64,000 bases of DNA, from NCBI GenBank assembly GCA_008632985.1, contig QPGO01000096.1:124001-188000 (forward strand), written 5' to 3'. Positions 21,860 through 64,000 of the stretch are shown one piece after another. Within the stretch, counting starts at the first letter, position 1; every line of letters starts with the position of its first letter. The translations under genes were made by a program, and so were the position numbers. Below the pieces are notes generated by a model. The model saw only the letters and a list, made by a program, of their open reading frames with translations, was not told the DNA's origin and ran no database searches. This stretch comes from Psammoneis japonica. Lineage: Eukaryota.

Positions 21860-23760
21860 ATGCATCTTCACATTTCACACCAAGCACCAAAATGACAATT
21901 TTTTTGACAGGACGATGGAGAACAACGAGACAACAATGTGGGGTTGGAGTGGTTCTCGCCATTTGTGACACTCAGTGTGTGAAAGCAGATGCCATGGGTC
22001 AATCGAACACAAGAGGCAAAATGGCCACAGACCAGCCAAACTGCTTGTTTTGCATCTGAGATTTTCTCACAAACACATGAATGGCTTTCATGTGTGTGGC
22101 TCCCATTGCCGCCGTTGCACATGATGTCGCCACACATTCCGTTGTAACCAACACAGCATTGGCGAGACTCATCATTGCTGTGGTTGGAGAGCCATGGGAC
22201 ACCATCTCACAGCCTCTTTTTTGTCTCATGCCCATCAGCACACAAGCAAGAAGCAGAGAAGCAGTGCCAGGCGCGCAACAACACGGTGGTTCAAACACGA
22301 AGTGCCAAGCTGACAAAACATGCCAAAAAGTTGTTTGAGGTGCTTGCTGCAAGTCAAAAGAAGGTGCTTCCATGCAGCGACAAGGAGCTCATGACAGCTC
22401 TTGTCAACACAACAGATCCAGAGAAGAGTCCGTGACACTTCAAGTTTCCTGGGGCCAGTGCCGCCGGCACGTTGCTTGGTGAAGGTGGCTGTGGGTCATC
22501 AGCAGAGTGTCTCATTGTGAGTCTGGATGCGAAGTGTCGCTCAAAGGGATCAGCATGTTGAGTCAGTGTTGTTGGCATTGTGCAAGACAACAGATTGAGC
22601 CACAGGCTTCTTTTGACCATCCAGGTGTGGTTTGTTTGCATGGGTGGCATTTCTGTCCCACAGCGGATTTCAGCGATGCCCCACGCAGCTCAGAAGAAAG
22701 TGACACCAATTCAGCAAGTGATTGGAGCTCAGAAGAAAGCAGCAACAGCATGCTCGCTTTCTTGCTTCAAAGCAGAAGATGCCAGTTTCCCAAAGCATTC
22801 ACCACAATTTTGATCTTGGAGCTCTGCCCCAATGGCTCCTTTGATGATCTCCTCCTCTCAAAAACTGCTGCCTCAAGGAGAGAAAGACATCACTCACCAC
22901 ATGGAGAGCATTGCCTCCTCGATGCATCTCTGCTTGCGCACTCAGTGCAAAAAGTCATTCATCGAGATGTCAAGCCCTCAAACATCTTGCTGGTGGCCAG
23001 TGGAGCACCAAAGATTTTGGACTTTGGCTTTTTCTGGTTAGAGACCCAAAGCCCAGTTGCTTTTCACTCTGTCAAACTTCTGGTTTTGGAGCTCCTGAAG
23101 TCACGAAAGTTGGGTGTTGCAAGGATTTGGAAGGACCGGGTCATGACCAGCATGTCAACTTGTGGAGCCTTGGCATCACTGGTTGCTGCCTCTTGGTGGA
23201 CAAGTTGCCATTTCCAATCTCTGACCTTGAAGTCTCTCAACACACCTCATTGGCTTTTCTGGAAAAATGTGCTCTCCACACCAGGAATTTGGTGTGTGTC
23301 GTGCTCAGGCCAAAGACAGCAAAAAAGAGAGTTGATGGAGAAAGCGTTGCAGCAACCCCATTTTTGTCAAAACCTTCATTTTTTAACACTTTTTTGTGAG
23401 ATTGGCCTGAGGTGGGCCAGGAATGGCTGCTTCAGGCTGGAAGCCTTGGACTTGAAGCTCCCTCAGCTTGAATTTCCTCCTTTTGTGTCTGAGGGTGCCA
23501 AAGACTTTTTCTGGGGGCGGTGGTCTGTTGCAGGCCAACCCAGGGGATTGCAGCATGTCCTTGGACAACATTCCAAAGCACCCCTGGATCCAAAACTTCA
23601 GCAAGAAACAAGTTTGCAGGACAAATGACTTTGGTGGAGAGAGAAAGAGTGTGGCAGGGCACAAAACTGTGAAAATGGTTGGTTTTTGAATGAAGCCACA
23701 TTTTCAATTTGCGAGACGACGACAGTGCAATGGATGCATGCTTTCAACACTGAAAGATTG
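21860..23760. other. TpA/CpG-depleted hypermutated block 4
   Basis: TA very rare. The 373-aa ORF 22507..23628 contains no Tyr. Confidence 0.85.
22440..23628 (+). pseudogene. Ser/Thr protein kinase pseudogene (Aurora/CAMK-like)
   Basis: LGEGGCG, HPGVVCLHG, IHRDVKPSNILL, DFG, APEV, VNLWSLGI, KLPF, FPPFVSEGAKDF, KHPWI spread over several frames. Confidence 0.8.
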
Positions 23761-24264
23761 TCCAACACTAACAGGCTGTTCATTTGCCATTCTGATCTAG
23801 AGGGATGCCAGGTGTTTGATTTCGATTTTCCCAATCTGATGGCTCATGGATGTCTCCCCACTTTTCGGCAATGCGCACTCACATTTACGGTTTTTGAGAC
23901 TGCGTGATTGACAAATGCTTTCAACTTTGTTGATGCTTGCTGCTGATCCCAAATGACGAGTCGTCAGTTCTCTCTCTAGAGAGAGCAGAGTGGTCGTTTT
24001 ATTAGACCGTCGATCCAACTCTTTCACCCCGACAGTTCGAGTGTCGCGGAACACGATTCACACGAGACTGGAGTGATTGAGTCGTCCTGATCACGAATCG
24101 CATGTTGCGGAGTCGCGCGGTGACCGCGCGACCAACGACAAAGGTCTGCCCGCGCGAAGTGTTGATGAAGGCGGGTGAGGCTGAAGGCATCGAAACGCCC
24201 AACAAAACCCCATCATGATTCATGATGGATGAGGAGACGGTGGCTTTGTGGATAGTCCAAGAAG

Positions 24265-27439: not shown

Positions 27440-28850
27440 AGTCTCTTTCACCTTCGGGTATTTCCATGGCTTTACTTCACAGCGAGATGTCCGTTGTTCC
27501 CAAGCTTTACGTATTCATTTTCTGCACGCGCCCGGGTTGCTCCGATGCCAAGTTTGTTATTCAGCTCGACCAGTCTCCGTATCGAACAGTCCCCATTCCG
27601 AATCATGCATGTTTACCATTTTCGCACGGCGCGGTTACCCTGGTGCTCCCAAAAGATTGGCTGTGGCGTTCTTGCTCGTCTAAACCGATGTAAAGCTCTC
27701 GCTTTCAAGTTTCGGGATTCTCTCTCCTTCAAGAAGAGACGGAAACTAGCTGCCACAAACATCATATCTTGTAGCTACAATGTCGAGCATGATCCACGGC
27801 TTGTGATGAATGCGTCCAGGGATGGTGGTTACGCATTTTCCCAGCGAATGAAAAAGGGAGTTGCAATTCCGCCCTCGTGAACCCGCGCTCTTGAGCAACC
27901 GAAATGCGTATTTGATGCGTTTGCCCATAGAAGATCATAGCTCTAATAAAAAGTTCAATCCGCCTCGCAACCTGCACTTGAGCAGCCGAAACGGCGTATT
28001 TGGTGCGTTTGCCGATGAAAGATCATGGCTCGTTAAGCCCCGGGGTTCTAGTAGGATTGTTGCCGACTATTGTATGGTTGTGTCCCGTCGTTAGCAACAG
28101 TGCCATAGAATTGCAGGCCAATGACCTCTTCCCCGCACTCTTTTACGGACTCGGCACATCCGCCATTATCAGAGAAGAGCATTAACGGTGTTGTCAAGCA
28201 CATCTTTGTCTTTAGAGCCTTCACAAAGCGACCAATGCCAAAATCCATTACATCAATCATGGCTGCATACGTTGCCATAAGGAGCATGATTCCAGTCCTT
28301 GTAATTCGCTTCTTTCCCAGGTGTGGCATTGATGTCAAGTGGAGAACAAGCCCAACGGTTTTTAACAAGGCCCATTTGCTTTGGTCTCTCACCCATTGTC
28401 ACTGGAGCTCATCCAGACTGTGTTTACATTTGCCTTGGTGTTTGGACATCACCTCTGGTGGAGCATGAAGTTGCCAGTGAGAGGAGCCAAGGAACACCAC
28501 ATGCAGAAAGAAGGGCCCACATGCACCATGAAGAATGTGATGCACTTCATCATTGACTGCATCAGTGTGGCAGTGGTTGCTGGGTTTTTCTGGCTGGGCT
28601 TTGGTGTTTTTAATGAGTGGTGGCAGAGATCACAACAGCTGCCTGCTCCCCCTGGGATGCTGCAGTGCTCACCAAATTCTTGCTGCACAGGCAGTGCACA
28701 GCTTTCATTTCCAGCCTTTTCTGATGCAGCACTCTGGCAAGTGCGGGGAAGGCAATCTCCACCATGGTGCTGTTTCCCACACTCACATGCATTTTGCATC
28801 TGCTGGTTTTCACAACTTCTGCAATGTCCACACCTTGGTGTGCTTTTCCA
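27440..28850 (-). pseudogene. Arylsulfatase (S1 family, bacterial AtsA-like) pseudogene, 5' half hypermutated
   Basis: YAAMIDVMDFGIGR, FSDNGG, NTPFR..K, HEGGIATP, IFWEHQGNRAVR. Upstream, decayed PFFLH...HWQLHAP...KHQGKC and IPGGAGSCCD. Confidence 0.8.
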
Positions 28851-30800
28851 AGGCCGTGGTTGTGTGCCGTGTGCACAACACCAGATTGATGTGAGCAAAG
28901 GGACTTTTGATGCCAGTGCTTTGGGCAGGAGAATTCTCAAACTTGTCCTTCCTTGCACATTTGATGACTGAGAAGATCTGATGTTTCTGTTGCCACACCC
29001 ACTGTTGCACCTTTTCCAGTGTGCAATTTGGCACGCCACTGTGATTTGACTTGGCTGGTTGTTGGCACCAGCACTCATCTTCCCTGAGTTGCTGGGAGCA
29101 CAGCAAAGCAATGCTTGGCAAAACATTCCAGTGATCATGATGGCCCTTGAAGTGCTTGGACTTTTTGGCGGGACTCTCTGGAGCACTGCTCAGCTCAGCA
29201 TTTAACTGTGTGCTGGTGCGCTGCTTCTTTGTGCTCTTCTCTTGGTTGCCAAACAACATTTTGTTCACATCTTCTCTTGCCACATTGTAAACTTTTTTGC
29301 CCAAGACCATCTTTCTCCAGCCACACTTTGGAGATGAGATGGTGCAGAGAGTCCCAAACAATGTTGGCCCAATGTTGGCCCCACAAGAGGTTCCAACTTC
29401 TGCTGGTCATGTCGGGTTTGTGAGTCTGAGAGCCTCACCCACAAACAGGCCATCTGCTGCATGCACTGGACACACTGCAGCAAGCTTTTGATGCAGCTCC
29501 ATGTCTTTCCCAACTCCAGCGGCGCATGTGCACAACAGCGCTGCTGCATTTCTTCAATGTGGGGGCACTTGCAGAGCTGTGTGGCTTGCTTTTCATAATC
29601 TGGGGCAGCATGTCCAGCACAGATGGCTCAAATTTGCTTTCATGGCATCAAGGAATGTGGTGCTGCCACAGCACACATCTGCAGCCACTTTTTGCATGGT
29701 TTGCGTCATTCAAGCAACAGCCTTGGTCCTGTCTTCAACATCACACTCCAAGCTGGAGTCAAAGTCAGAGAGATGTGGTCTTTCAGAATTTGAAGAAAGT
29801 CTGCTGCTTCAAGACCACAGCAGCCAGTTTCTGGTGGGTTGTTCATTGCAGCTCTCATTGGCCCAGCCAAGTCCGTGTCTCTGGAAGATGCTGGGCTTTT
29901 CCACCCTCATCAAGGGGCTCGAAAGAAACAAGCTTTTGTGCTGATCCATCATGCGATGGCTTTGCTTCTGAGTGTGCTTTCTGTGTTATGCCCCAACACT
30001 GTGGCAAATCCCTGATCACCACAAGCTTGCAATGCTGTCAAGTGCAACACCTGTTTTCTTCATTGCCAGAAACAGCTCTCCACAAATGGGGTGCCAGGAC
30101 AACACAGTTCATGCTGCACACTGAAACAAATTGGCCATGCCCACAAGCATCCTGTGCCTCTCAACACCCTGTGTTTAAAGAGTTGGGTTTTGCTCCTGAG
30201 GCGAGACAGTCAATGACTCATGCTCTTTTGACAAGCTTTTGAGCTGCAAAACAGCGCTTGCTTGAGGAGCTGATGGCCGGCATGACAACGGCAATGAGAG
30301 ATCACCAGCATTCTGCAAATTAGTTGACGCAGCTTGCAGCTGACAATCATGAATGAAAACAATTTGTGCTCTTGGCATGAGAGAAAACAGCTTGATGGGT
30401 TTCTTCTTCTTCTTCTCTTCCTCAAGTCCAGTGTCTTCTTGTTGTTTGCTCTGCTCCACACTTTTCCAACAATGTACGGCCATGCCATCATTTGTCATCT
30501 TGTCAGGGAAACACTCATCAGCCAATGTCTTCTTGGCATTGCAGTGCATTTCTTCATCTTGTTGCTCTTTGGCAGTTTTCTCTGGGCCAGGCGTGGGGCT
30601 GCGACATTCTTGTTGAGTCTGGTGCTGAAAGAGTTGGAGACAGCATCACATCGCCAAACTCAGGATGGAGTGGTGGGTGTTCAACAAAGAATTGAGCCAT
30701 GATGGAAGCAACAGTGCCATTTGTGGTGCCCCCTGCATTTGCAGAGAGATGAGAAATGGGAAACGGAGGATGCGTCACTTTGCTTGCTGGCCAAAGCGAC
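28320..30800. other. TpA/CpG-depleted hypermutated block 5
   Basis: Very few TA, TG/CA excess. Overlaps the 5' half of the sulfatase and unidentified decayed sequence. Confidence 0.85.
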
Positions 30801-31039
30801 CCACGTAACTTGACATTCATCTGAGAACTCATCGCAAAAATTCCAAATTCCAAAAGCCAACAAGCGCGCTCGTCCGTCCACCGACCGCAGCATGACCAGC
30901 ATCATCGCACGACCACCGCAGTTTCCATGATGAATGACATGACCGCAGTGCATAGTCTAGTCTAGTCGATGCTCTGCTAAGCATCTCCGACGAGACCTCA
31001 ATAACTGGTTGCAATTTTCGAACAGAGCATTCAAATCCA

Positions 31040-33867
31040 ATGTCATCCTCGCAAGACTTGTTGTCGTCGGCAGTAGAAAGCTCTCTGTCATTACGACTCG
31101 ATTCGGATGTTTGTGATTACATTACATCCCTGCTCACGGACGATCCACACGATGAGGATGCACGCGAGGCAGTCACGGCTCTGGTGGCTGGCTCTCTCGA
31201 AGACGAGGACGCTGACGAGGTTTGTTGTCAATTCTTTCAGCTCTTGGATTTTGGTATTGTCGGAAGTGATGCGAGTAGTATTCCATCCGAAAAAAAGGAC
31301 TCTGGATCGCAGCCACTTCGAAAGTTGGAACAGTCAGTCACCATGAAACACCACGACGTGGAGACGTTTGCTTCCGGTCTATCGGCAGAACCCGTGGACG
31401 ACGTCATGGGAGATGATACTACTGGAAAACAATCACAGATTGCCTCGTTTTATGCCAACATGATTGATCCATCCAAGAACGAGGCAGCCATGTCGGAACG
31501 AGCACGACGCAAAGCACGACAACGGGCTCTGAGACTCGAAATGGAACAACAAGAGCGACAGAGAGAAATTCAACACAATTTATCGTTGCTAGAACAAGAT
31601 GAGAGGGAAGAAAATGAAGAACAAGCCATGCTCAATGCTTCTTCTGACAATGCCTCCAATGTACACTTTACCAATTTCGATTTACCCAATCTCCGGGGTG
31701 GCGGACCGGACTTGTTGCAAAACACATCACTCACGCTCGCTTGTGAACGACGTTACGGACTCATGGGACGCAATGGATGTGGCAAAACAACCTTCTTGAC
31801 TCATGTGGCTACACGACAAACCGATGGTGCTGTCCCCAAAAATATGAGCATGCTCTTGGTACGACAAGAAATCATGGGCAACGACTGGACGGCTGTCGAG
31901 ACGGTGCTTAAGAGCGATGTCAAACGAGAAAGTGTAAAGAGATTCATTGCTTGGTGTGAAGAAGAATTGGAAAAGTTGGAAAATGGTGCTGCTGTCTCTA
32001 CGAAAACGATTAGTACAGACGAAATTGAAAAAGACAAGGGCAGCGCTACTACTGGTGCTGCAAACGAAAAGCCACCATCAGCTTCCAAGGGACGTCAAAA
32101 GTTGCGAGATCGAAAAAAGCAAGCCATGCTGAAAAAGCAAAAGGCTGCCAAAGGTGCGACGGATAAAGAAGAACCGTCGTCCAAGGAATCCATTGAGAAA
32201 AAGAAGACACAGCTGTCGCAAAAAGCTGGCACGTGCCTACGAACGACTGGCTCAAGTCGAACAATTAGACGGTGGGGATCCGGAACCACGAGCCCGTAAA
32301 GTATTGGCCGGACTGGGATTTTCAACAGAAATGCAAGACAAGCCCACTCAGGAATTATCGGGTGGATGGAGAATGAGAGTGTCACTCTCGTGTGCACTGT
32401 TTGCCAGTCCGTCACTATTACTTTTGGACGAACCTACCAACCATCTGGATCTAGAGTCCGTGTTATGGCTGGAGCGGTATCTAACAACAACCTTCAAGGG
32501 AACGCTCGTGGTGGTATCGCATGATCGGTACTTTTTGAACGAGGTTGTGACAGACGTGGTGCATTTCTACAGAAACAAGCTCACGTCGTATCGTGGAGAC
32601 ATTTCCAACTTTGAGGCAGTCCGAGAAGAAGAAAAGCAACGACAGCTGCGTCTTCGTGAAGTACAAGAATCCAAACGTGCTCACTTACAAAAGTATATTG
32701 ACTTGCACGCACAAGCTGGAGAAAACGGAGTCAAGGCTGCGAGACAACGAAAATCGAAAATGAAGAAACTAGACAAACTCGGTGTCATGGCACAAGAGGG
32801 TAAGAAATGGAAGGCAAGCTATGACGGCGATGCAGAACAGGTGGAGGAGTTTGTAGAAGATGAACAGGTGGTTTTGAAGTTTCCGGATCCTGGATCTTTT
32901 GAAAATGATATGGTACGACTTGAGCAAGTATCCTTTGGATACAGCGAAGACAAAATCTTGCTCGAGAACGTAGACCTGGTACGTGATACCGCTGTGTCTC
33001 GTCGTTTCTCTATCTCTTGATTGACTCACCTAGTGTGCTTGCATTTTGTATCATATACAGAGTATTGGTTTGAAATCTCGAGTGGCGCTACTCGGAAGAA
33101 ATGGTTGTGGAAAGAGCACACTGATCAAGCTTGTGGTTGGGGCGCTACACCCTCTCAAGGGTAAAGCGGTAAGTTCAGTTTTGTATGGTTTGCCGAGATC
33201 CAAGATATTGGGGTCGAGTCAATTTTCATTCCACACCATTGGAGCTGACTTTGATTGTATACTTTGCTTATGTGGCATGTAGACAATTGATGGTCGGGCC
33301 AAGATTGAATACCTTGCCCAACATCAGTTGGAACAGCTTGATCCCGACGGTACACCAATGCAGACAATGATTGATCGATACCCTGGTGATGGCGGCAATG
33401 AGCACATTCTTAAGCTTCGTAGGTATCTGGCCAACTTTGGCCTTGGAGGAGAGATTCTTCCCAAGCAACGCATTCACACCATGTCAGGAGGACAAAAGTG
33501 CCGATTATGTCTGGCTTGTGCCATGTATAGGAAACCACACTTGCTTATTCTTGATGAGGTAAGGCACTAGAAGAGCATGTGATGAATCTTCCTTTCCCGC
33601 CGTAATGTAATTCACACCGCGCACTTTTTTGTTGCAACGTAGCCAACGAATCACTTGGATCTTGAAACGACCGATGCTCTCATTGAGGCTATTCGAAACT
33701 TCCAGGGTGGGGTACTGCTTGTGAGCCATGACCAGCACTTGTTGACAAGTGTTTGCAAGCATCTCTACGTCTTACAAGACGGCAGCTTGGAGCTCCTGAA
33801 GCAAGGAATGAGCAACGGCGAAGCTTTTGAGGCATACAAGAAGGCTGTCATTCAGGGTAGAAGATAA
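31040..33867 (+). CDS. ABC-F family ATPase (GCN20/ABCF3-like); 4 exons
   Basis: Two cassettes: [26 protein letters not shown] and [23 protein letters not shown]. Introns 32979-33060, 33169-33282, 33559-33642. Frameshift near 32220. Confidence 0.92.
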
Positions 33868-39495: not shown

Positions 39496-40981
39496 ATGAT
39501 GAAGATCTCTGCTGCTCTTCTAGCACTTGCGCTCGCGAGCTCGTCGTTGTGTGTTCAAGGACAAACCGTGTTGGAAGTTGTAGAGGACTCTGCCAACCAC
39601 ACCACACTTGCAGCCGCAGTTGACGCTGCCCAAATGCGATCTCCGATTTTTTGGATGACGATTCAGCTAGCTTTACGTTGTTCGCTCCTGACAATAGCGC
39701 CTTTGCTACTCTTCCAAATGGCACCGTAGGGCTCCTCACTTCTGAACCGTGGCAGAACCACCTCGTTTGTGTTCTTCTGGGACATGTGTATGGTGGTGAG
39801 TCTTCGTTGATCGTACTTGCAAGACATTTTGTGTTGTGCTTTTTAGTGCTGCTCACTGACTCCTGCATTCGTGTTTTTGCGTTTCTGCAGATGCGGCCGT
39901 CAACTCATCTTCCATTACAGATCCCATCTCCGTCGAGTCAGAAGAGGACGGTTTCTTCTTGAACTTGACGCGCAGCGGTGATACCGTCAGTGTGAATGGA
40001 ATTCCCGTCACGACCCCTGATATTCCGGCTTCGAATGGAATTATCCACAGCATCTCCGCAGGTGTTCTTCTACCTGATTGTGTTGCCAAGAATATTGCAG
40101 ACGTCCTCACGGAGTCCGGCAACTTTACAACTCTTCTCGCGGTGGTCAATGCTGGCAATTTGACGGGCCTTGTCACAGCCCCTCCTACTCCTGAGGGACT
40201 CACTGTTCTAGCGCCCAATGATGAAGCGTTCGCCGCGGTCCCTCCAGAGGTTACCAATTATCTCCTTGGCAACACCACGGCGCTTAGGGACGTTCTCTCA
40301 TACCACGTTATCGAAAGCAACTTTATCCCCACCGAGGATGAAACGGTCGAGTCTGCCCTAGGAGAAGATCTTGAGTTCACTGTTGATGACGATGAAATCA
40401 CTGTGAATGGAAACACCTTAGTCGAGGTTACAACGCTTGCATCGAATGGTATCGTTCACGAGATCGATGCGGTGTTGCTGCCCCCCAATTTCGCACTCCC
40501 GACGCAAGCTTCGGAAATGCCGTCGGCTGCTCCTTCATCCCTAGCTACCGGTACTAGCGAAACGCCATCCCAGGCACCCACGGTCGAAGGTGCGACGACA
40601 TCCCAGGAACCCACGGGCGAAGTTTCTTCAGAAGCGCCGTCCCAGGCGCCCTCGGTCCAAGCCTTTACGGGCATGCCATCCCTGACGCCTACCGAGACGG
40701 CCACAATCTCCGTAGCTCCTACTAGCACCCCAGGGCCTACCGCGATGGCCACCTCCGCATCTCCTACTAGCACCCCAGGGCCTACCGTCACGGTCACCAC
40801 TTCCTCCGCGTCTCCTACTAGCACCCCAGGGCCTACCGTCATGTCTACGGGTGCAGGTTCACCCATGCCTACCGCGACTGTAACTTCGTCCATGCCCTCC
40901 ATTACTCCAACGACTTCTGGAGCTACCAAGGCCAGCGTGTTTGCTGCTCTTGTTGCAGGAATTGTGACTCTCTTTTTGTGA
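39496..40981 (+). CDS. Fasciclin (2x FAS1) cell-surface protein with Ser/Thr/Pro-rich stalk and hydrophobic (GPI-like) C-terminus
   Basis: Signal peptide; TLFAPDN.AF, ASNGIIH.I..VL, TVLAPNDEAF, LSYHV. Intron 39796-39890. CCTACTAGCACCCCAGGGCCTACC repeated three times at 40718-40838. Small frameshifts. Confidence 0.88.
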
Positions 40982-41199
40982 ATCTTTTGAATCCGTGTCA
41001 TTTTTGTGAAGCTATTGTGACTTTAAAGTAATAGTGCTTGTTTTGGTTGTGTTTGAGATTTCCAACTACAATGCATGAGCTACAACACATGAACTAGTTA
41101 CATGAATTTCGAAACAATGGATGCCTCCACTGTAGTCGGCTGTCCAAATGAAAAATAGTTTCTCTGAAAGGGCTTTCAAGGCTACAAGCCTCTTTTCTT

Positions 41200-44100
41200 T
41201 AATGCCCTCCCAGCTCCTCATCATGGCAGGAAACTTCATGCTTTTGACACGGAATGGACGCCTTTGGGCACCCATCCTTTTTTTCCACCTGCTCTGCTAT
41301 GTTGTGCTACAAGTGCTCTGCCTCTTTACATGTTGGGGCTGGGTTGGGTGGTGGTGTAGTGGTTGCACAGCTCAAGCTCGGTCCCACAGTGAACTCATGT
41401 CGCAAGGAAAGGTGTGTTGCTTGGGAGGCATTCTTCCGCAAAGACTGCACAGCAAATGACACAATTGTCAGCATGGATCAGTTTTTGCAACAACACACAG
41501 TCTTCTTCATGCACCACAAGGCCAGCAATTTCCACTGGCATGATTTTGGTGCTTGCATCCTCAGCTGCCGGTGCTGCAAAATTCCTTGCCAGGAGCATCA
41601 GTCAAAGTTGTTTCAGGACTGCCATCCCAGGCGCCTTCAGTCAAAGTTCCTGGTGTGGGAATGCACCCACTCCACTCCTGCCAGCACCTTGACACCTGTT
41701 GTCATGGCCACCACCTCCTCCAAATCTCCTGCTGGCACCCTGTCACACCAACCCCAATGCGCCCACTGTCATGGCAGTCAACATCAGCTGCTCACCCACA
41801 GCCTCAGGTGCACGTGTGTTTCTGGTGTGCAACCTCTCACACTTGTTGTGTCACCCTTCTCAGGTGGCTTTGTGCTGGGTCTCACAGGACAGTTTTGGCC
41901 ATTTCTGCCAATGGCACACCCTCATTTCAGCATGACAAACAACAGCTCTTTCAGAGAATGAGAAACACATGCATCAACGCCTTGTGGCCCACATGCTTGT
42001 TGTCCTTTCTGGCAATTTTTTGCAGATTCTGCCAATTTTTGACACAGGGTGCAGCACCTGCTCTGTGTGCTTCTGAAACAATCGCCCACAACCGCTTTGT
42101 CAAATTTCTGAACTGCTTTCATCCACACACATCTCAGCCCTCGATGCTCTCTTTGTTTCTCTCCCATTGGCCAACGGGCCAATTGTTCTGCACTTTGTGT
42201 GTTGCAAGATCTGTCTCTGTTGTGGCACTTGTGAGTGTGCACCAGAAACACCCTTCTTCATTGCCCTTTGATGGCCATTCATCTGCTGCATTGATTGGTG
42301 CTTCTGCACAAGATCTGGTGTTGTTTCGGCTCATGGGAAACATTTCCACTGATGCCCAACTCACTTGTCATTAGACTCTCCTTTTTGCACTTGCCAGCTC
42401 TGAACAACCCTGCTCTTGCTTTTGGCTTGTCAAGCTCTCACTGCTTCAAGTGGCAAACCTTTTGCTTTCACTCCAGCACCCAGAAGTGCCAAGCTGAGTG
42501 TGTTTCTGTTGAAGGCAAGGTGTTTTGTTGGTGGCGGCAATGTTTTTTCCAAGATCTTGCAACATTTTTGCAACCCATTCTGAGTGCAACTGTCCTTTGC
42601 TTTCATTTTGTGGATCTTCCAGCATGTCCAATCCAAAAGAAAGCAACAACCACCTTCTTCCCATGTGTTGTCAGTTTGTTCCAACCAGTTGTCTCTGGCG
42701 GGCACCACTGCAAGGCAGCAACATGACTGGCCAACTGCACCAGCCTCTCCTGCATCCCCAGTGGGGTGAGCTGGAAGTGTGGGTCAGCCGGCGCAGCTGG
42801 GCAACAAAGGTGCAAGAGAGCTGCAAACTGGGTTTGAGTTTTTTTTTGCTGTCAGTGCATGCTGGTGCAGGGTCATCCATGTCCACAGGGAGGCTGCAAC
42901 TTCATCCATGCCCTCCATTTCTCCAGCAACTTCTGGAGCTGCTGAGGCCAGCATGCTCGCTGCTTTTGTTGCAAGAGTTGTGGCTGTGTTTGTTTTGTAA
43001 ATCTTTTCAGCCCATGTCACTTTTGTGAAGCCACTGTGACTTCAAAGCAACGGTGCTTGTTGTGGTTGTGTGTTTGAGATTTTGCCAACTGTGGTGCATT
43101 GTGAGCTCCAGTTGCATGATTTTGAAACAATGGATGCCTTCACTCTCAAGATCACTGTTCAAACAAAAATGGTTTCTCTAAAAGGGCTTTCAAGGCTGTG
43201 TGCCTTTTTACTTTGACACCACTCTTCAGCTCAGCATCGTCACAGCAGGAAGCTTCATTGTTTTTTGTGACCCCCTTTGGCAGTTGACCATCCTTTGCCA
43301 CCTGCTCTGCTGCCATGTTGCACAACATTGCTCTGCCTTTTGATGTGTTGGGGCTGGGTTGGCGGCAGTGTGGGTGGCTGCACAACTTGAGCTTGGCTCC
43401 CCACTGGAAACCCATGTCACAAGAAAAGGTGAGTTGCTTGTGAGCTGCACTTTTCCAAAGACCACAAGTGTGGATCAGGTTTGGCCACAATTCACAGTGC
43501 ACTTTGTGCACAACAAGGCAGGCAATTCCCGCTGGCACAATTTTCAGTGTTTTTGCATTGTCAGCAAGCTGCTGGCACCACCAACAATTGTCTTGAGAGC
43601 CTTCAGTCAAAGCTCCTGTGGCGGGAGTTCTGTCCAAGATGCCTCCCCGATTGTTGCAACCTCTGAATCTCCCACTGGCTTCCCATTGCCTGTCACCATG
43701 GCTGCCACCTCCTCCAAATCTCATGCTGGTGGCACCCCATCAACTGCCCCAGCACCTGTGCCGTTGTGGCTGTGGGTGCAGGGACACCCATGCTTTTCGA
43801 AGCAGCTGTGACTTCATCTGTGCCTTCATTTTTTCCAATGACTTCAGGAGCTGCCAATGCTGGTGTGCTTGCTGCTTTCATTGCAGCAGTTGTGCTTCCT
43901 CACCTTTTTTTGAATCCTTGAGCCTGTGTGCTGCTCTTTTGTGAAGCTGTTGTGTGGCTTTGAAGCAACGGTGTTTGTTTTGGTTGTGTGTGTTTGAACT
44001 TGCCAGCTGCAGCGCCAGCTGCATGAATTTTGAAACAATGGATGCGCCCACCTTTCTGATCCACTGTCTGAAGGAAAATGATTTCTTTCCCAAAGCTCAA

Positions 44101-44440
44101 GGCAGCTCGGTTGAGAAAGCTGCTTTGTTGCAGCTGTGCATTGTTGCAGTGGACCATGGAGCAGTTTTGCTGCTGATGGCTTGACAGGAGAGCCCTGCTC
44201 TCTGCTCTCTGGACGACACTGCTGCTCTGGAGAGCCATGGTCACACCTCACACAGACAACACATCTGCTCTGTTGGCATCTTTTTTTCACATTCATTTTC
44301 ACTTGATTTGCCAATGGCACATCGGCCCAACAATGTGCTCAGTTGTCTCATGCAACATGTTTCTGGGGGTGTGCTTTCTCTCTGCCTGCTCTGTGCTCTC
44401 TGCAGCAGATGGAGCAGTTGCTGCTGTTAGCTCGACAGAG
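41200..44440 (+). repeat. Hypermutated block 6: degenerate tandem copies of the fasciclin 3' end plus flank, with a ~1 kb unrelated insert
   Basis: 40500-41540 realigns to 41540-41800 + 42860-43530 and to 43540-44060, with TA/CG replaced by TG/CA. Confidence 0.85.
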
Positions 44441-44742
44441 TCCTGCTCTCTACTCTCTAGACACTGCTGCTCTAGAGAGCAGAGTGGTCGTGCCTTACAC
44501 AGACAAGTGACACATCTGCTCTGCCAGCATCCTTTCTTCACATTCGCCAAGCATTGCATTCATGCATTACATTTTCACTTTATTCACTGAAAGCACATCA
44601 GCCCAATAATGCTTAGTTGTCTCGTATGTTTCTCATAGCTTTCTACGGTACGTGGTATCCTTTTTGCACGATCTTTCTGCTGAAAATAGCGAGGCGATCG
44701 CTTCAGTCTCATCATTAACGTGACGATTGACGATTCAACCTG

Positions 44743-46155
44743 ATGGCCATGCGTTGCTTTGCCTTCAGCAATAAGTCGCAAAGATGGAACGCCGCAAAAA
44801 GGCGCTTGTTATCTATGACAAATAATGGCCCATTGGATCAAATTTGTGAGCTGGCTGCGTCGAATTTAAAGTTTGGTCCCGGCGCTACATCAGAAGTCGG
44901 AGATGAGCTTCGTCTCGTGTACAGCGCCAAGCGAGTTGTGGTCTTTACCGATACCACAATCGATAAACTGCCTTGCATGTCTATTTTGAAAGAATCTTTG
45001 GAAAAGAATAAGTTAGAAGCTGTCACGTATGACCAAGTCCGGATCGAACCAAGCAGCGTCAGTTTCCAGCACGCGATTGAATTTCTTCAGAATCAGCAAT
45101 ACGATGCGGTGGTGGCGTTGGGTGGCGGATCGGTGATCGACACAGCAAAGGCAGCTAATTTATACGCTACTTTTCCAGCCGACTTTTACGACTATGTAAA
45201 TCCACCAGTGGGGCGAGGCCTACCAGTTCCGGGGTTGGACAAGGGAAGTCTACCGCCGCTCATTGCAATTCCACTACCGCTGGTACCGGCAGTGAGACCA
45301 CCGGAGTCGCCATTTTTGATGACTTGGCAACAAGAAGCAAAACGGGGATTGCGAATCGTCGATTGAAACCAACTCTGGGAATTGTAGATCCAGAAAATAC
45401 AAAGACTCTACCACCGGCCGTTGCCACCTACTCGGGCTTGGACGTGTTGTGCCATGCCATTGAAAGCTACACGGCGTTGCCCTTTGATCAACGACCGAAA
45501 CCTACATCCCCAGTGGATCGACCCGCCTATCAGGGATCTAATCCGATCAGCGATGTCTGGTCCATGTTTGCTCTAGAAACTGCAGCAAAATACCTACCAC
45601 GTGCTGCCTTGGCGAGGATGACGAGGCTCGTTCCAAAATGTTAATCGCCAGTTCTGCCGCTGGCATGGGATTCGGAAACGCGGGAGTTCATTTGTGCCAC
45701 GGAATGAGTTATCCTATTTCGAGTCAGGTTGAATCTTATCAACCAAGTGGGTACGACTCGGTTGATCATGCTATTGTGCCGCACGGGCTGTCTGTGATTG
45801 TCACAGCACCATCTGTGTTTTCCTTCACAGGCCAAGCCAACCCCGACAGACACGCAGCCTGTGCCAAAATACTGGCATCCGCCCGTCTTGGAGACGCAGA
45901 TCAACTGACACCTTCCATGACTCGTGATGATTGGAGTGGAGACGACGCTGGTTTGTGGCTTGCTGATGAAATACGAGAATTGATGCATTCGCTCAAGGTT
46001 CCCCGGGGTATTCGGGCAATGGGATACACTACTGAGCACATTGCTTCCTTAGTTGAGGGCACGCTTCCACAACACCGAGTCACAAAATATCGCCACGACC
46101 CGTTGGTCGAGAGGAGTTAGACACCTTGTTTCGCAACGTACTGAATGATTCTTAA
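44743..46155 (+). CDS. ADHFE1: Hydroxyacid-oxoacid transhydrogenase (iron-containing ADH family)
   Basis: ASNLKFGPG...EVG, GGGSVIDTAKAANLY, DYVNPPVGRG, GLDVLCHAIESYTA, RPAYQGSNPISD, FGNAGVHLCHGMSYPI, LPQHRVTK. Several frameshifts. Confidence 0.92.
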
Positions 46156-46709: not shown

Positions 46710-47728
46710 ATGAAGCTTTTCATTGCCGCCTTGTCACTTGCCCTTGCGGGCTCCGTCTCTGCTCAGTCCATCTTGGACACTGTCAAAGACTCTCCCGACC
46801 ACGGCACACTTGAGCAAGCTGTAGGCGTTGCTCCAAAAGCGATTGCTGACGCGTTGGGAAACGAGAGTTTGAGTTTGACGTTGTTCGCCCCGGACGACAT
46901 GGCGTTTTCTGCCCTCCCTGAAGGTACTGTGGGACTTCTCACTACTGAGCCGTGGGAGAACCATCTTGCTTGTGTACTTTTAGGACATGTCCATCCCAAC
47001 GCCGTCAACTCGTCCTCCATCCCGGAGGGAACCACTTTGGTGGACTCACTTACCGAGGGTTACAAGTTGAACCTTACGCGCAGCGGTGAAGCCGTCAGTG
47101 TAACGGAATTCCCGTCACTACTGCCGATATTCCGGCTACCAACGGATTCATCCACAGCATTTCCGAGAGTGTTCTCCTTCCTGATTGCGTCACCAAGAAC
47201 ATTGCCGAGCTCGCGACGATGAATGGAAACTTCACGACTCTTCTTAAATTGGTGGGTGATACAAATTTGACAGATGAATTCACGGGGGCTCCAACGGCCG
47301 ACGGCCTCACGCTCATGGCTCCGACAGACGACGCTTTCTCCAAAGTCCCCAGTAATATCCTTGAGTTTATTGGGGGCAACGTGACTGTTCTAACCGAAGT
47401 GCTCACCTACCATGCTATTCCTGAAAACGTGTTCCCCACCGAATCGGGATCGGTGAAGTCCATTCAGGGAGATGACATTATGGTGGATGTTGATGGCAGC
47501 ACTATCAAGCTAAACGGTGCCAGTACAGTTCAGGGAACGGCTTATGCATCGAATGGAGTCATCCACATTATCGATACGGTGTTGCTCCCTCCCTCTTTAT
47601 CTCTTCCGGGAACGCCGATGCCTACTGACGGTCCGGAAACGCCGATGCCTACTGACGCTCCCTCGGGAGCAGCCAAGGCCGGTATGCTCGCCGCTGCGGT
47701 TGCTGGAGTGGCGGCTCTTATTCTTTAA
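46710..47728 (+). CDS. Second fasciclin (2x FAS1) paralogue, intronless
   Basis: Signal peptide. GTVGLLT.EPW.NHL.CVLLGHV shared with the 39496 gene. TLMAPTDDAF, ASNGVIHIIDTVLLP. Frameshift near 47100. Confidence 0.88.
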
Positions 47729-51863: not shown

Positions 51864-53600
51864 GTGCTTCAAAGAACTGTTTCAGCCACAACAGGAATGA
51901 GATCTCTGACTTGAATGACATCATCATCAAGAGCAACATGACACACCACACAGTCTGTCGCCTGCTCAAAATCCAACTTTTCCAAGGAGATTGAATCACT
52001 TTGATGTCAGCCTGATCTGTGAATTGACTTGTCAATGTGAGCCTGCATTGTTTGTTTGATCCATCAAATGGAAGATGCCAAGCAAGTGCTGCTGAACATC
52101 CATGCTGGGCTTGCCAGCAGAATTCCCAGACTTGTCAAATCCACATGTGGCAAATTCCCATTGCACTCTCTGGTGGGGCAGCAGGCTGTTGCAGAGCACT
52201 TGCTCACTCCCATTGAGAAACAGAGCAAAAACTCAGGAGAGTCTTTCACAGTTGACAAGCCTTTGTTTTTTTCTTCTCCTTTTTGAAGAGATTTTTTTGA
52301 ACAGCCATGGTCAAAATTGTTGCCACCATTCTTGTCAGACCAATCATTCTTCTTCAAGCTCACTGACAAGGCCAGGAAAAAGGAAATTGAGAGCTCTGCT
52401 TGAGATGAGTGTCTGTGTCAGAGGGCACTCTCAACTTGGCAGCATGCATGTGTGAGCCAACAGCTCAGCAGGAGGTGACAGCAAACCCAGCCAACAGAGT
52501 GACAAATCTAATCATTGCCATTGCGGTCAGAGTGGCTAGGCAGCATCTCTCACAACTTGGCTTGTGACTGCGCACTGGGAAAGATGGCTGGGGTCTTGCT
52601 GCTTGTTGTTTCATCCCAAGGGGCTGGAGGCAAACAAGGTGTTGTGGCACACAAGGAAGAGAAGCTGTCCATTCTCAAATGCAAAGTTGGCACAAAGGCC
52701 ATTTCAAACAGTGGCTGAGCTTTGAAGAGCAGTGCTTGTTCTGGCTCAGGCTGTCCAAACATTGCACTGTCATGCAGTCTTCATCAGGAAAGAGCCTGGT
52801 TTTGTTTGCTGCCTTCAGCTTCTGGCAGAAGCTGCAAATGCTGGTGTGACTGACAGTGCTTGGAGGCTCAGTTTCTCCAAGTGGGAGCAAAGCACCTTTG
52901 GCACATCGCCGTCTTTTGCAGCCTTCAGCATTGAGGATGCTTCTTTTGTGAAGGCTTGTTCTTTCTCTTCAGGGCCTCACTTCAAGTCCACATGCACTCA
53001 TGTTCATGCAAGCTGGGGTGAGGAGGATGAGAGATGAGAGCTGAGCCAGATGTCACACCTGCTTTCGAGCCCCCAAAGGCTCGGGTGACATGGTCGACAT
53101 GCTGCATCCTGCATCATTTGCTGCCAGCAAAGAACAAAAGCAAACACCAATGCCAACCTGGCTCTAAATCTGAAGAACTCTCATCAAAAAGAAGGAAAAT
53201 CAATCACAAATGACAGCTTGTCATGACATGCCAAACAATGAAAACACACACCACAAAGTGCCTGCAGCAGGCATCCCTGCCGCAGCCACCAATGACACTG
53301 CCGTTGCTGTGACAGCGCAGGTGCAGAAGGAGCACATGGTGCTGCACAGAATGCCTGTCACACAACCCGCCAGCAAGAAATCACACAGCACCTCCACACG
53401 CTGTGACAAAGAAAGTGTCGCAGCTCCTGTCAGAGGCAACACACAGATCCTGGCCACATCACACCTAAAATGACCCCAGTGGTTGCCAAATCTGTGGCCA
53501 CAGACATGAAAAAAGCGGAAGAATTTTATGTGTGATTGTTGGGATTGTGAGATGTGGTCGGAAGCAAGTTGGCTGGGGAAGTCTCCCCCAAGCATGTCCG
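51864..53600. other. TpA/CpG-depleted hypermutated block 7
   Basis: TA rare, TG/CA excess, overlapping Tyr-free ORFs. Confidence 0.85.
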
Positions 53601-57817: not shown

Positions 57818-58019
57818 AATAGTGAGACTTTTTAACTAAAATTAAGCGAGATAGATAATGCGGCAGGTCTCTGGTGTCAGTGTCATGATAGAGAAAATAG
57901 TGTTGTGCGGCAAGTGGCAAATAATAAAGGGAGATCTGAATGCATGAAATCTCCGTCCGGCCGCCGACCGACGACGACTCGAAAGGCCTCCTTCGAGCCT
58001 CCCTTTCTCTGGCGCGGCT

Positions 58020-60600
58020 TTTGGTGTCAGATTGTTTCAGAGCACCTCATTTTTCCTTGCTCTGAAACATTGTGTTTTTGCTGCTGAGTCATTGAGTTGT
58101 TGTTGTTGGAAAGGCTGTTCTTTTGCCAATTGTGCATCATGATGGGCTCTGCCTCCTCTGAAGCAGCACTCGCGCTGCCTGTGAGAACACGAAATCACAG
58201 CAAAACAAGTTTTTGCATTGCCCAACTTTGACCAAGGTGCTGAGGCCTTTTGCAAACATGCATTGTTTCAAGAGGGTCACAATCATCAACAATGCCAGCA
58301 GGATCGGTGTCGTGTGAAGGCGTTGGTGCAGAGTTGTGAGACATCTTGATGAGGTGGGGCGATGTGACATGTTCTTTTGTTGCCGTGGTGTGAGAGGCAA
58401 AAACTTGCTGTTTTTCATCCTCCCTTTGAGGTGACTTGAGAACAAGGGGAGGACATGGTTTGTGGTTTTTTGTGGCACTGTCGGTGTTTGTGTGCAAATG
58501 CACAATGAAGTGGACTGAAAGATGCGCGCACAAAAATTTTGTGATGCGAACATTTCATTGCCATGACATCTCAAACTGCGTTCTCCACTTGCAAAGGGAT
58601 GTTGTGTTGAGCCCTGAAGACAGTCTTTTTGGCTTGTGTGCAGTTGACAAAACTGCTGCCATGGCTGCCAGCACATGTTGGGCATCACACCACATTTTGT
58701 CTCCTTCAGCTGCCTTGTCATTGCAAGGAGCAAGAGAGTCACAGCTCTCCATTGCTTTGCATGCATCAAAGAAGCCCAAGTTCAAGAGTGCTGCTTGTGG
58801 ATTTCTCGCTTGTTGGGAGCTGACCTCTGGCAATGCAAGACAAGCTGAGGCATCATTGCATGGTGACAACATCATGCAATGCCCTTGTTTCTTTGCACCT
58901 TTGAAAGTGTTGGCAGCAGTGGCAGGGGTGATTTTGTTTTGCACGCATCTGTGCCATGACCAGAGCACTCCCCATGTGTGCATTTGTGGGTGGTGGCAAG
59001 TTGTCTTTGTTTTCATTTGTGGCTGTGGCCTTCTTCATCACCCCAACACTGTTTTGCATGTCATGCAAACTGCAGGCACACTTTGTCCAAAGAATGGAGC
59101 CACCTGCTGGTCACTGCCCTTCACAGTGCATGTCAGCACAAATGGTTGCTTCAACACAAAGGAGGTGCTGAAAAGGCTTTCTGTCATTCTCTGACATCCT
59201 TGATGACAGCATGCTTTGTTCATGCTGGTCTTGCTGCTCTCATTCACTGTGGCAGTGTGCAAGCAAAACAAGTCTCAAATGAGTTGTTTTTTGGCACAGA
59301 CCTCTGACCAGCATGCAAGCAAGCCATGAGTGCTGTCAATGTCAGGCTGAAGTTGCGCAGATTTGGCAGTATCCCAAGCAAATGTGCCAAGATGAAAATG
59401 AGTTCCAGATCAGAAGTGGCTGAAATCACAGCCATGTCTTGTCTCTTCACATTCTCTTCTTCCCAAGAACAAGTCAGAGAGCAACATCTGCACAGAGAAC
59501 AAAGTGGCAGGCTGCCTCTCCTGATGCTGTGCAACAGCACAGGAGCTGCAAGTGGATGACAAGGGGGGTCCTTAATGAAGAAGACACTCTGATGCAACCC
59601 CCACAAAGATGCAATCTGTGAGCAGATTTTCTCTTTCATTGATCCCAGCCCAACACAGCAATGCCACATGACATGCAGGCAAGAACAGACAGTCATCCAC
59701 AACTCTGTGCATGCACAGACTCAGAGCAAACATCACCTCCTGCAGCAATCACATGTGCACACCAGTGCAGACAAATGTCACTTCCACACTTGATGAGAAA
59801 GAACAAAATCTGTGGGCCATGGCAACAAGTTTGCTGCAGTTGTTGCAGTCTTTGCACTTCACTGTCCTTTTCAGATTTTGTGCATTTTAGGGGACTTGGC
59901 TGCGCCACTCAACTTGGTCAAGGGCATGTGTTTTGAAATGTTCCAACTGACCCATGACTTGCCCACATCTGCTGCCACCATGTTGGGACCTTGTGGACCA
60001 CTTGTTGAAGATTTGACAAAATGGTTGACTTGGTTGGGTGGAGTCATGCTGCAGGTTGATCCAGGGCCAAAGCTCGCAAAGAAATGAGCTCAGTTTGCTC
60101 ATCTGGAATTTGGTGTTGGGGATTTCCTGTGGTGCTGGTGAACTTGCCATCCAACCAAGATTGAGACAAGATTGTGCAGGGCTAGCTCCTCTTGGTGAGG
60201 GTTGACAACAGGGTGGCCAAGAAGACTGGTCTTCTCTTGGTGACACAATGTCTGGACACATGGGCACCTTCATGATGTCCTTGATTTGCTGACTGATGTT
60301 GTCAAGAACAGTGTTGTAGGAGACTGCATTGAAATGGGTGTTTGAAGGGGAGGCTCTTTGATTTTTGCATGTGCCATCTCACATGCAGGCAAAGAATCGA
60401 ACAAAATGTGTTTGTGATTCTTTTTGTTGGGGACTGCTGCCTCCACCTCAATTTTTGTCAAGTTGTCGCTGGGACAGTGACTGTTCGTGCATGCAATGAT
60501 TCAACAGCATTGTGAATCTGTGACAGTCTCACCAGGAGCAATGCCGCTGCAACAATGACATGACAGAAGATGAAAAACTGACAACTGGCGGCTGCCCAGT
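58020..60600. other. TpA/CpG-depleted hypermutated block 8, probably a decayed minus-strand gene or transposon ORF
   Basis: TA nearly absent. Protein-like remnants in ORF 58555..59016. Confidence 0.8.
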
Positions 60601-60954
60601 GACCACCCAACTTGGGTCGTGAATCAAGTCGTCACTCTGGGTAATGAAGTCGTCACCGACAATTACGCAGAAAAAGGTAAAGAGGCGATGGGCAAACTGC
60701 CAGTGAACAATGAACTGGTCAGTCTCGCTCGCTGATTTGAAGCGAATCAAAGAAGCTTAATGAATCGAATTTTCCTGACAATAAAGGCCTTCAACCATTG
60801 CGTGGGAAGTGACACATTCAGAAGGGCAACTACAGATGCGTTTTGAGCGTTGAAGAAAGCATGGCATTGTCGTCCCTTCCAATTCCAACTTGTAGTATAT
60901 GATCTCTATTCACATTCTAATGTACGAGTGCTTAGTAGCGACAAAATAGCGATT

Positions 60955-62829: not shown

Positions 62830-64000
62830 CAAATTACACAAACCCATTCCTAGAATGATCCATGCCCCAGATGCAGCTCCCAAGACTTGATGCATGCATT
62901 TGTTGGCTGTGGTGCAAGCTCCTCCTGTTGCTGGAGCATGGCCGACAAGTCGCAACCTGGCACAGCTCATTTTGTGGAGATGACAGAGAAAAGAGGAGCA
63001 GCAGCGGAGGGGTGCCCTGAATTTGACCAAAATGTTTGAGGCTGCAGGCCTTTGGCACAGCAGTCATGTTGACAGGGATGTTGATGGTTGTCCAGTTGAC
63101 GCATTTTTTTGGGTTGTCCACAGGGCTCTCTGGGGCTTGGACATTCGAACACCACACTGGAGCCACCGCATGGTCAGCGAAAGCTTTGATTTTCTCTCAC
63201 ACATGATTGATCACCTCAGCATGTGATTGCAGTGTTTCAAAAATTTTTTGCTTGTTGAAAGAAGATGGGAACCCATCCAATTCTAACTTGGCAATGTGTC
63301 TGCCTGGCTCAGATTCGTGCTGTGGCATGTTGTTTGGAGAAGGAAGAATTCACTCAACTTGGACTTTTTGCAAAGAACAGAGGCAACAAAAGAGACCTTG
63401 TTTCTGAACATGTTGTTTGGAAAAGGAAGAATTCACTCAACTTGAACTTTTTGCAAAGAACAGAGGCAACAAAAGAGACCTTGTTTCTGAACATGGTGAG
63501 AGATGTTGAGAAGAGCAAAAGCTTTCCGACAATGAGCAGCCAACTTTGCTGCCCATTCTGCGGCTGCTGAGACAGGTGTTGTTGGATCAGCAAACAATGG
63601 TGCATTTTGGGTGCCTGGATGTTCTTGCAGGCAAGGAGAGTCATTTTTTCGACAGAACAATGTCCAAAACCCCGCAAAAAATGCTCGTGGCATCCATGAA
63701 TGACCATTGCCAGAAGCAAAGGGCAGGCTGGAGTGGCAACAATCCCGTCAGCAAAACACGTGCTCTTAAAATGCAATGAACAGCCCAAACAATTTTCAGC
63801 AAACACAACACAGGAACAGAAGGGAAAAAATGCAAAGGAGACCCTTGGTGAGCTGACAAATTGGCTGGCTGACTTTGACATGTGCTCATTCCCCCAAACG
63901 GCATCTCGAGCCTCTGGCACAGGTGTCACGGCCATTTCTTTCTTTGTTCCCACCATTTTACATTGAGCTGCTTGTTGCTTTGCCATGGCCAAACAACACT
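62830..64000. other. TpA/CpG-depleted hypermutated block 9
   Basis: TA nearly absent. Runs off the window end. Confidence 0.85.
63326..63495 (+). repeat. 83-bp direct tandem duplication (2 copies)
   Basis: CATGTTGTTTGG(A/G)...GACCTTGTTTCTGAA at 63326 and 63409, differing by two G/A transitions. Confidence 0.85.

Follow-up and report, generated by a model that had tools for sequence, protein, structure and literature searches.

Loss of TpA and CpG downstream of a fasciclin gene

A 64,000-nucleotide stretch of the diatom Psammoneis japonica (contig QPGO01000096.1, positions 124,001 to 188,000; hereafter the window, numbered from its first letter) contains a fasciclin gene, F1, whose 3' end has been duplicated in tandem. 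The spacer that separates this gene from the next has lost almost all of its TA (TpA) steps and most of its CG (CpG) steps, and the duplicated gene ends lie largely within it. This is probably the result of transition hypermutation at TpA and CpG throughout a domain of silent spacer DNA, by which the copies were rewritten and F1, lying outside, was not. An initial annotation of the window had noted that TA in the gene is replaced by CA or TG in its copies; that observation is confirmed, and the interpretation placed on it is partly supported.

The depleted domain extends from 41358 to 44427 (3070 bases; GC content 0.50). With expected counts taken from the frequencies of the window outside its depleted blocks, the domain has 4 of an expected 122 TA and 32 of an expected 168 CG (Poisson P ~1e-46 and ~1e-37, respectively). 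The ratio of observed to expected counts (O/E) is 1.88 for TG plus CA and 0.17 for CG (0.96 outside the blocks), with GC content unchanged. Its limits are sharp. The last TA before the domain is at 41357 and the next after it at 44428, those inside being confined to 42372, 42998, 43179 and 43209, and composition is normal within a few hundred bases on either side.

F1 lies on the forward strand from 39496 (ATG) to 40981 (stop) and was recognized from its open reading frames (ORFs), its homologues and its match to Pfam PF02469 (108 bits against a cut-off of 22, E 4.7e-31). It comprises a signal peptide, FAS1 domains, a Ser/Thr/Pro-rich stretch and a hydrophobic C-terminal tail. Its composition is normal (TA O/E 0.64, CG 0.94), and its intron at about 39796-39890 (95 bases) retains 2 TA and 4 CG.

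Copies A, B and C are arranged head to tail on the same strand as F1. Copy A (about 40530-41547) consists of the last ~450 coding bases of F1 and some 565 bases downstream. The part outside the domain (40530-41357), made up of the coding end and a 376-base 3' flank, keeps 36 TA, 21 of them coding and 15 in the flank; the 190-base tail inside it (41358-41547) has no TA and 3 CG. Copy B is in two parts, a Ser/Thr/Pro-rich one at 41548-41800 without TA, and one at 42864-43544, with the C-terminal tail, stop codon and 3' flank, that keeps 3 TA and 5 CG. They are separated by an insert of 1063 bases (41801-42863) which is unmatched in A and is as depleted as the copies (1 TA, 11 CG). The shorter copy C (43545-44086) has no TA and 7 CG. 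BLAST aligns 40850-41547 with 42864-43544 at 72% identity over 730 columns (E 8e-102) and 40836-41130 with 43761-44051 at 69% over 308 columns (E 2e-28).

All 14 strings quoted in the initial annotation are present in the window where it placed them, except that TTTTGAAAC is at 44028 rather than 44027; GAGCTGC also occurs at two further, unrelated places. Among them, the motif CCTACTAGCACC of copy A is represented in the first part of copy B by both CCTGCCAGCACC and CCTGCTGGCACC.

Fate of TA and CG steps in the copies

The changes were counted in a three-way alignment of A, B and C. The Ser/Thr/Pro-rich part, aligned with MAFFT, was left out of the counts because its internal repeats make the alignment unreliable. 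None of 18 TA steps of A is kept in B, where they have become TG (7), CA (6), TT (2), CG (1), GA (1) and GG (1), and none of 16 is kept in C (TG 7, CA 2, TT 2, CG 2, AG 2, CT 1). The CG steps of A have gone the same way, with 0 of 12 kept in B (CA 5, TG 2, other 5) and 1 of 9 in C (TG 5, CA 1, other 2). The remaining dinucleotides of A are kept in the copies at 30 to 80%, and the identity between copies, 75 to 81%, shows free divergence at other sites.

When A is taken as the ancestor, with only its undepleted part (40836-41357) used, and B and C are pooled, although they are not fully independent samples, A>G or T>C changes are found at 25 of 63 TpA bases and at 38 of 348 bases elsewhere (0.40 versus 0.11; Fisher p 1.7e-7). 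The ceiling at TpA is about one half per base, as the first hit removes the target. An excess of these transitions at TA is thus present, and the initial annotation is not refuted by the test that it had set for itself. For C>T or G>A the counts are 13 of 36 CpG bases and 32 of 309 bases elsewhere (0.36 versus 0.10; p 1.5e-4). This parallel decay of CpG is absent from the initial annotation; its fourth example and half of its first are in fact changes of CG.

The same counts bear on whether the bases were shifted by drift or repair rather than by a lesion. Outside TpA the rate of A>G and T>C is 0.11 per base compared with 0.10 for the reverse transitions, so there is no general drift from AT to GC, and on these counts such a drift, or biased gene conversion of a general kind, was rejected as the cause. 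A narrower version would combine CpG decay with biased repair or gene conversion in silent chromatin, for example by a mismatch glycosylase or by short-patch conversion of T:G to C:G. Very-short-patch repair is held responsible for the depletion of CTAG in enterobacteria, and the products of such a bias would equal those of deamination, since sequence cannot separate a lesion from the bias with which it is repaired. However, the removal of 97% of TA would require a supply of mismatches specific to TpA, and no bias from AT to GC accompanies it at other sites. Biased repair is thus a rather improbable source of the pattern.

Direction of change

Majority-rule polarization of the three copies was rejected, as all of the TA has gone from B and C and a consensus wrongly blames A. 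More is to be learned from sites at which the three differ. A shows TA at 40881, 41013 and 41024 and CG at 40911, 40936 and 40994, and at all six sites CA is found in B and TG in C. With one step per lineage, such sites can be explained only by an ancestor with TA or CG. The first three are clear cases of what the initial annotation had described, the resolution of one ancestral TA to CA in one copy and to TG in another, and it was right that the copies have lost TA rather than the gene having gained it.

Exchanges of CA for TG are by far the most frequent kind of adjacent double difference between copies. They make up 11 of 26 between A and B, of which three fall in A's depleted tail (41373, 41508 and 41541, against the counterpart in B), and 10 of 32 between B and C. 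The same is true of an unrelated inverted repeat of 650 bases (85% identical; 12946-13599 and 14073-14730) that is wholly in another depleted block, and whose arms differ by such exchanges in 17 of 30 adjacent doubles; in none of these comparisons is another kind seen more than twice. CA/TG pairs are alternative products of one lost self-complementary step. The arms of the inverted repeat also have 14 single differences of CG versus TG. From the differences of both kinds it follows that each arm was rewritten independently, after the duplication, and in all three repeat pairs analysed the changes postdate duplication. Moreover, B, C and a protein-kinase pseudogene in another block cannot have begun without TA, because they were once protein-coding.

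Where B and C both became TG or CA, the product is the same at 8 of 14 sites and different at 6, which fits an independent coin-flip at each site. This random appearance of the choice argues against selection as the cause, that is, against the blocks being functional DNA that must avoid TA and CG because of promoters, stop codons, transposon targets or nuclease sites. Sharp boundaries and the recurrence of blocks between genes would suit a functional element, but the blocks hold frameshifted gene copies and no protein domain other than a kinase remnant, and their other sites diverge freely at the identities given above. We therefore consider selection very unlikely.

The reversed polarity, in which A gained TA and CG, was also rejected. 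It needs an ancestral gene end that was almost free of TA and CG, followed by the opposite transitions in A, and it fails to explain the equal depletion of block DNA that has no homology to the gene.

Assembly and public contigs

Contigs from a public sequencing run of the same organism cover 30 of 30 bins between 40000 and 45000. One contig (40812-41547) spans the left limit of the domain and another (44285-45000) the right, although the run is possibly from the sample behind the assembly of the window and so is not independent support. The possibility raised in the initial annotation that the copies are a collapsed assembly finds no backing in contigs that cover the locus and bridge both limits, within the same restriction. 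Within the domain the contigs differ from the window at 0 to 7 positions per contig of 191 to 1394 bases, from which it follows that they too lack more than 100 expected TA.

There are 15 substitutions where a single contig provides the only cover, and 10 of them are TA or CG versus CA or TG. In about 8 of the 15 the contig has TA or CG and the window TG or CA, with 2 the other way round. They include 40933, 41300, 41780, 42041, 43327, 43530, 43545-43546 (a CA/TG double) and 43595. Such differences could reflect allelic variation from a process still under way, or errors of the assembly where bases are modified.

They could speak for an artefact, in which the assembly would be collapsed or chimeric, or in which modified bases were miscalled (5-methylcytosine as T, modified A as G). 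One-base gaps in the assembly point the same way. F1 has such a gap relative to its paralogue F2 near 39630 (39629-39631), F2 has one relative to F1 at about 47100, and both shift the frame; an ABC-F gene (30956-33020) is likewise spread over two overlapping frames. These frameshifts may be real lesions, but indel errors are suspected because in several places the public contigs have a single base that the window lacks. F1, which the initial annotation called intact, shows a one-base frameshift in this assembly. Against an artefact, the contigs match the window elsewhere in the domain, and the disagreements are explained equally well as alleles. An artefact is therefore extremely unlikely as the origin of the depletion. 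A second run, X2, covers only the genic ends of this region (40000-40992 and 44763-45000) and was not used as evidence of expression.

A target probably set by position

The limits of the domain (41358 and 44427) do not match those of the repeats (about 40530, 41547 and 44086). On the left, the domain begins inside copy A, 190 bases before its end. On the right, it ends 341 bases past copy C, between the members of a 140-base repeat (44156-44294 inside and 44409-44545 outside; 86% identical), and the outside member has TA where the inside member has TG (three sites) or CA (one site). In the part of A outside the domain even synonymous TA is kept, as in CCT ACT AGC, which occurs three times. 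F1 lies outside the target rather than being protected by selection, because selection cannot hold synonymous, flanking and intronic TA against a loss of 97% next door. The target is probably set by position, not by homology. The statement of the initial annotation that duplicates are targeted and the functional copy is spared thus needs revision, for the domain starts in A, takes in the 1063-base insert and runs on for 341 bases beyond C.

This weighs on the most serious of the alternatives, a point mutation process triggered by homology. It would be the mirror image of fungal repeat-induced point mutation (RIP), mutating duplicates at TpA and CpG and leaking into unique DNA. In its favour, several of the repeat pairs found in the window are in or at the edge of depleted blocks (the tandem copies, the 650-base inverted repeat, the 140-base repeat and a 90-base tandem repeat), and the changes in the three repeat pairs analysed came after duplication. 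In addition, the insert looks unique, but parts of it draw additional contigs and could have other copies in the genome. The ends of the insert (41837-42003 and 42672-42838) have a contig depth several-fold above their surroundings, and single public contigs skip 707 bases (41919 to 42627) or 173 bases (42651 to 42825) within it. The insert is possibly a repeat element that has shorter forms in other places; neither a Pfam domain nor terminal repeats were found in 41801-42863.

However, A and B began as identical copies, yet A retained all the TA tested across some 830 bases, synonymous and 3'-flank sites among them, and was rewritten in its last 190; the limits of the domain disregard those of the repeats. 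F1 and F2, which are 71 to 78% identical, are free of hypermutation, although this pair may be below a recognition threshold. The hypermutated region of the chlorarachniophyte Bigelowiella natans, discussed below, is single-copy. A homology trigger is on these grounds unlikely, though a good deal less so than the alternatives considered so far.

F2 lies at 46710-47728 on the forward strand, is normal in composition and matches PF02469 in two frames (102 and 39 bits). It serves as an outgroup for only the 21 codons of the C-terminal tail. No close fasciclin orthologue was found for polarization, the best local protein identity being 52% and most homologues being bacterial or unnamed.

Several observations weigh against domain-wide hypermutation of silent DNA at TpA and CpG, or against the way in which it was polarized. 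As there is no outgroup orthologue, most single sites are polarized by argument rather than parsimony, and parsimony alone would not favour a TA ancestor for the repeated CCTACTAGC motif. At 40924 (GCT ACC), the sole TA site that F2 can test, F2, B and C all have G, and the TA there most likely arose in A. This is the second example of the initial annotation (GAGCTACC to GAGCTGC), where copy A itself has probably changed from G to A. A stands alone at three more tail codons (TTT, ATT and ACT), with G>A or C>T changes of its own. With changes at four tail codons relative to F2, copy A cannot be treated as purely ancestral, as it was in the initial annotation; it is not a frozen ancestor. The functionality of F1 must be regarded as unproven in view of the frameshift read in its sequence.

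The remaining points concern the process and its target. Besides TpA, A>G is more frequent at ApT (16 of 74; 0.22) and ApC (12 of 74; 0.16) compared with ApA and ApG together (10 of 200). The 3' flank at 40982-41357 is already poor in CG (5 CG, O/E 0.28) although its TA is normal (15, O/E 0.52), so that CpG decay seems to begin at the stop codon, some 376 bases ahead of the loss of TA. The two processes may therefore have limits of their own and, in consequence, different causes. Finally, the concentration of repeats in the blocks suits a homology trigger as well.

Other depleted blocks in the window

Twin depletion of TA and CG is not confined to the fasciclin spacer. There are about nine such blocks in the window, with cores that sum to 17.6 kb and pooled O/E of 0.04 for TA, 0.29 for CG, 1.74 for TG and 1.81 for CA. 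A looser segmentation gives about 21 kb of the 64 kb, so that the blocks make up about a quarter to a third of the window, and TA O/E is below 0.15 in 58 of 255 windows of 500 bases. The AT dinucleotide is mildly low in the blocks (0.78 versus 0.94 outside) and the GC dinucleotide raised (1.32 versus 1.05). The other blocks are at 1-1087, 9000-11000, 12951-14561, 22000-24000, 28426-30900, 52000-53500, 57926-60641 and 62852-63958, and all are intergenic.

The genes of the window have a TA O/E of 0.58, and former coding DNA in the blocks (the fasciclin copies and the kinase pseudogene) 0.02 to 0.09. The pseudogene is frameshifted and lies at 22483-23625 on the forward strand, with a second frame at 22848-23396 (Pfam Pkinase, E 1e-10 and 2e-06). 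When it is aligned to solved kinases, His is found at two positions of conserved Tyr, a replacement that lends weak support to the loss of TA.

Undepleted stretches that are poor in ORFs are mostly genes split by introns, with Pfam matches for 13 of 63 ORFs. In this window, then, the long intergenic spacers are blocks, and transcribed units, including their introns, are not. None of the 85 ORFs of at least 90 codons in the blocks has a transposon or viral Pfam domain; the only matches are the two frames of the kinase pseudogene and one weak, sub-threshold hit. The suggestion that transposons are targeted along with host duplicates is therefore unsupported here, although heavy decay in the blocks could mask foreign origins elsewhere.

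Proposed mechanism and comparison with known systems

We propose that the spacer between the fasciclin gene and its neighbour is a bounded, chromatin-type domain inside which two context-specific transition processes would have run to saturation. One would change A:T to G:C at TpA, giving TpG or CpA according to the strand hit, and the other C:G to T:A at CpG, giving the same two products. B, C and the last 190 bases of A would lie in this domain and have been rewritten after duplication; F1, its intron and the 376-base 3' flank would lie outside it and retain their TA. The homology of the copies, their loss of TA and CG, the random resolution to CA or TG and the sharp limits that mismatch the repeats are all direct observations. 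The determinant of the domain may be silent or untranscribed chromatin, not sequence homology. This is proposed because the blocks are intergenic and transcribed units are spared, which is a pattern rather than a measurement.

At TpA, adenine would be deaminated in DNA to hypoxanthine, which pairs with C, probably by an enzyme related to tRNA adenosine deaminases. The natural substrate of these enzymes is an A preceded by U (U33-A34). At CpG, 5-methylcytosine in silent, methylated DNA would be lost by ordinary deamination. From equilibrium counts, A>G at TpA would be about 89 times as fast as C>T at CpA, and C>T at CpG about 11 times as fast as A>G at CpA, ratios that are valid only if the domain is at equilibrium. 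An excess of about 11-fold falls in the range known for methylated CpG.

The TpA process may be the same kind of event as hypermutation in B. natans, as we infer by analogy. A preprint on mutation-accumulation lines of that alga describes 231 mutations in two silent viral inserts, 230 of them A>G or T>C and every one of these at TpA (bioRxiv 10.64898/2026.01.13.699255). The targets there are integrated giant-virus and virophage DNA (Mettrop et al. 2026, bioRxiv 10.64898/2026.01.13.699255), the rate in the inserts is given as ~1000 times background, and an ADAT2-type enzyme is proposed as a candidate (bioRxiv 10.64898/2026.01.13.699255). The two systems share the change of TpA to TpG or CpA by strand, bounded regions beside normal DNA, independence of copy number, and clustered windows in which TpA is low and both CpA and TpG are raised. 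The preference for a 5' T also matches the candidate enzyme.

Concentration at TpA is found here as in B. natans, although the preference is not exclusive, as the weaker A>G excess at ApT and ApC shows; only TpA is affected in B. natans. The domain at 41358-44427 is a bounded region of the same type, with limits that differ from those of the repeats. The targets recognized here, in contrast, are not viral or foreign. They are fasciclin copies, a host-type kinase pseudogene and intergenic DNA, rather than viral inserts, and the host is a diatom (a stramenopile) rather than a rhizarian.

Other differences are of degree. Depletion is saturated here (TA O/E 0.02 to 0.04) compared with 0.45 in the viral region of B. 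natans, and within a gene-dense window it takes in a quarter to a third of the sequence, compared with 124 clusters in ~95 Mb. The rate excess in B. natans was measured at ~1000-fold, whereas that in P. japonica, ~90-fold, comes from equilibrium counts. CpG decay accompanies the loss of TpA here, and CpG, diatoms and pseudogenes are without mention in the preprint text.

RIP in ascomycetes, the functional analogue, introduces context-specific transitions into duplicated DNA (PMC2621366, PMC7296669). The likeness lies in the irreversible wrecking of non-genic or duplicated DNA, after duplication, with a dinucleotide footprint. However, RIP makes TpA from CpA and lowers GC content, and here TA O/E is 0.04, CA and TG are at 1.7 to 1.8 and GC is steady at 0.49 to 0.50. 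RIP also mutates both members of a duplicate, whereas copy A escaped over most of its length.

Decay of methylated CpG, as in vertebrates and plants, yields TpG and CpA from CpG, as observed here. It accounts only for the CpG half of the pattern and has no effect on TpA. Cytosine methylation of transposons in diatoms has been reported (PMC9998398).

Adenosine deaminases acting on RNA (ADAR), which hyper-edit double-stranded RNA, also produce A>G changes on both strands with a preference for a 5' U, but their substrate is RNA and they are not known outside animals. The changes described here differ in being fixed in the genomic DNA of tandem copies, with no sign of an RNA intermediate.

Occurrence and implications

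The one account so far of localized A-to-G hypermutation at TpA in nuclear DNA is the 2026 B. natans preprint. A full-text literature search, whose coverage leaves out most subscription journals, turned up no description of this kind of footprint from diatoms. To this the fasciclin locus adds a comparison of before and after within one genome, which gives direction and strand symmetry. It also adds evidence that homology is not what is recognized and that saturation is reachable, reshaping much of the intergenic DNA, as well as a spatial link of TpA loss with CpG decay.

It is possible, and we put it forward with some doubt, that diatoms own a domain-directed system of DNA adenine editing, akin to that of B. 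natans and hence perhaps ancient in the SAR supergroup, which in P. japonica has run to completion, all silent DNA, with pseudogenes of host origin among it, being stripped of TpA by this system and of CpG by methylation. If so, the two self-complementary pyrimidine-purine steps have all but vanished from a quarter to a third of a gene-rich region, and the process would form an irreversible layer of silencing or genome defence with a reach like that of fungal RIP and the opposite chemistry. A bolder variant would have a single deaminase that acts on both A and C leave both footprints.

Should such a system be general in diatoms, it would bear on how they silence and erase DNA, on pseudogenes and old transposons that are hard to detect, and on estimates of neutral rates. 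It would also open a search for natural DNA adenine deaminases, which to our knowledge have so far been known mainly as engineered base editors. As diatoms are genetically tractable, the mechanism is directly testable.

Twenty-six metagenome loci (199 kb) around relatives of a helicase encoded in the window contain 1 of 761 windows with TA O/E below 0.15, in contigs that are biased to unique genic DNA. That one window lies between genes on an environmental diatom contig, in a patch of 700 to 800 bases (about 12940-13740 of the contig) with the twin depletion, TA O/E being 0.07 to 0.20, CG 0.25 to 0.32 and TG and CA near 2. The process may thus exist in another diatom, its extent in the P. japonica genome being exceptional.

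Other features of the window

The window belongs to a eukaryotic nuclear genome. Genes are densely packed in it and their introns are few and short; GC content is 0.44 to 0.55, and there is one run of 233 N. The best named homologues of the helicase ORF are from the raphid pennate diatoms Cylindrotheca (58% identity) and Nitzschia (53 to 56%), and unnamed ones reach 71%. The window also encodes a protein that has four helicase-associated (HA) domains.

Nine repeat pairs were found in the window. One of them, the 90-base tandem repeat at 63326-63498, is 97% identical and lies in a depleted block; it is a young duplicate and could date the mutation process. The window also carries an AsnA gene, for which the matching protein clusters are bacterial only.

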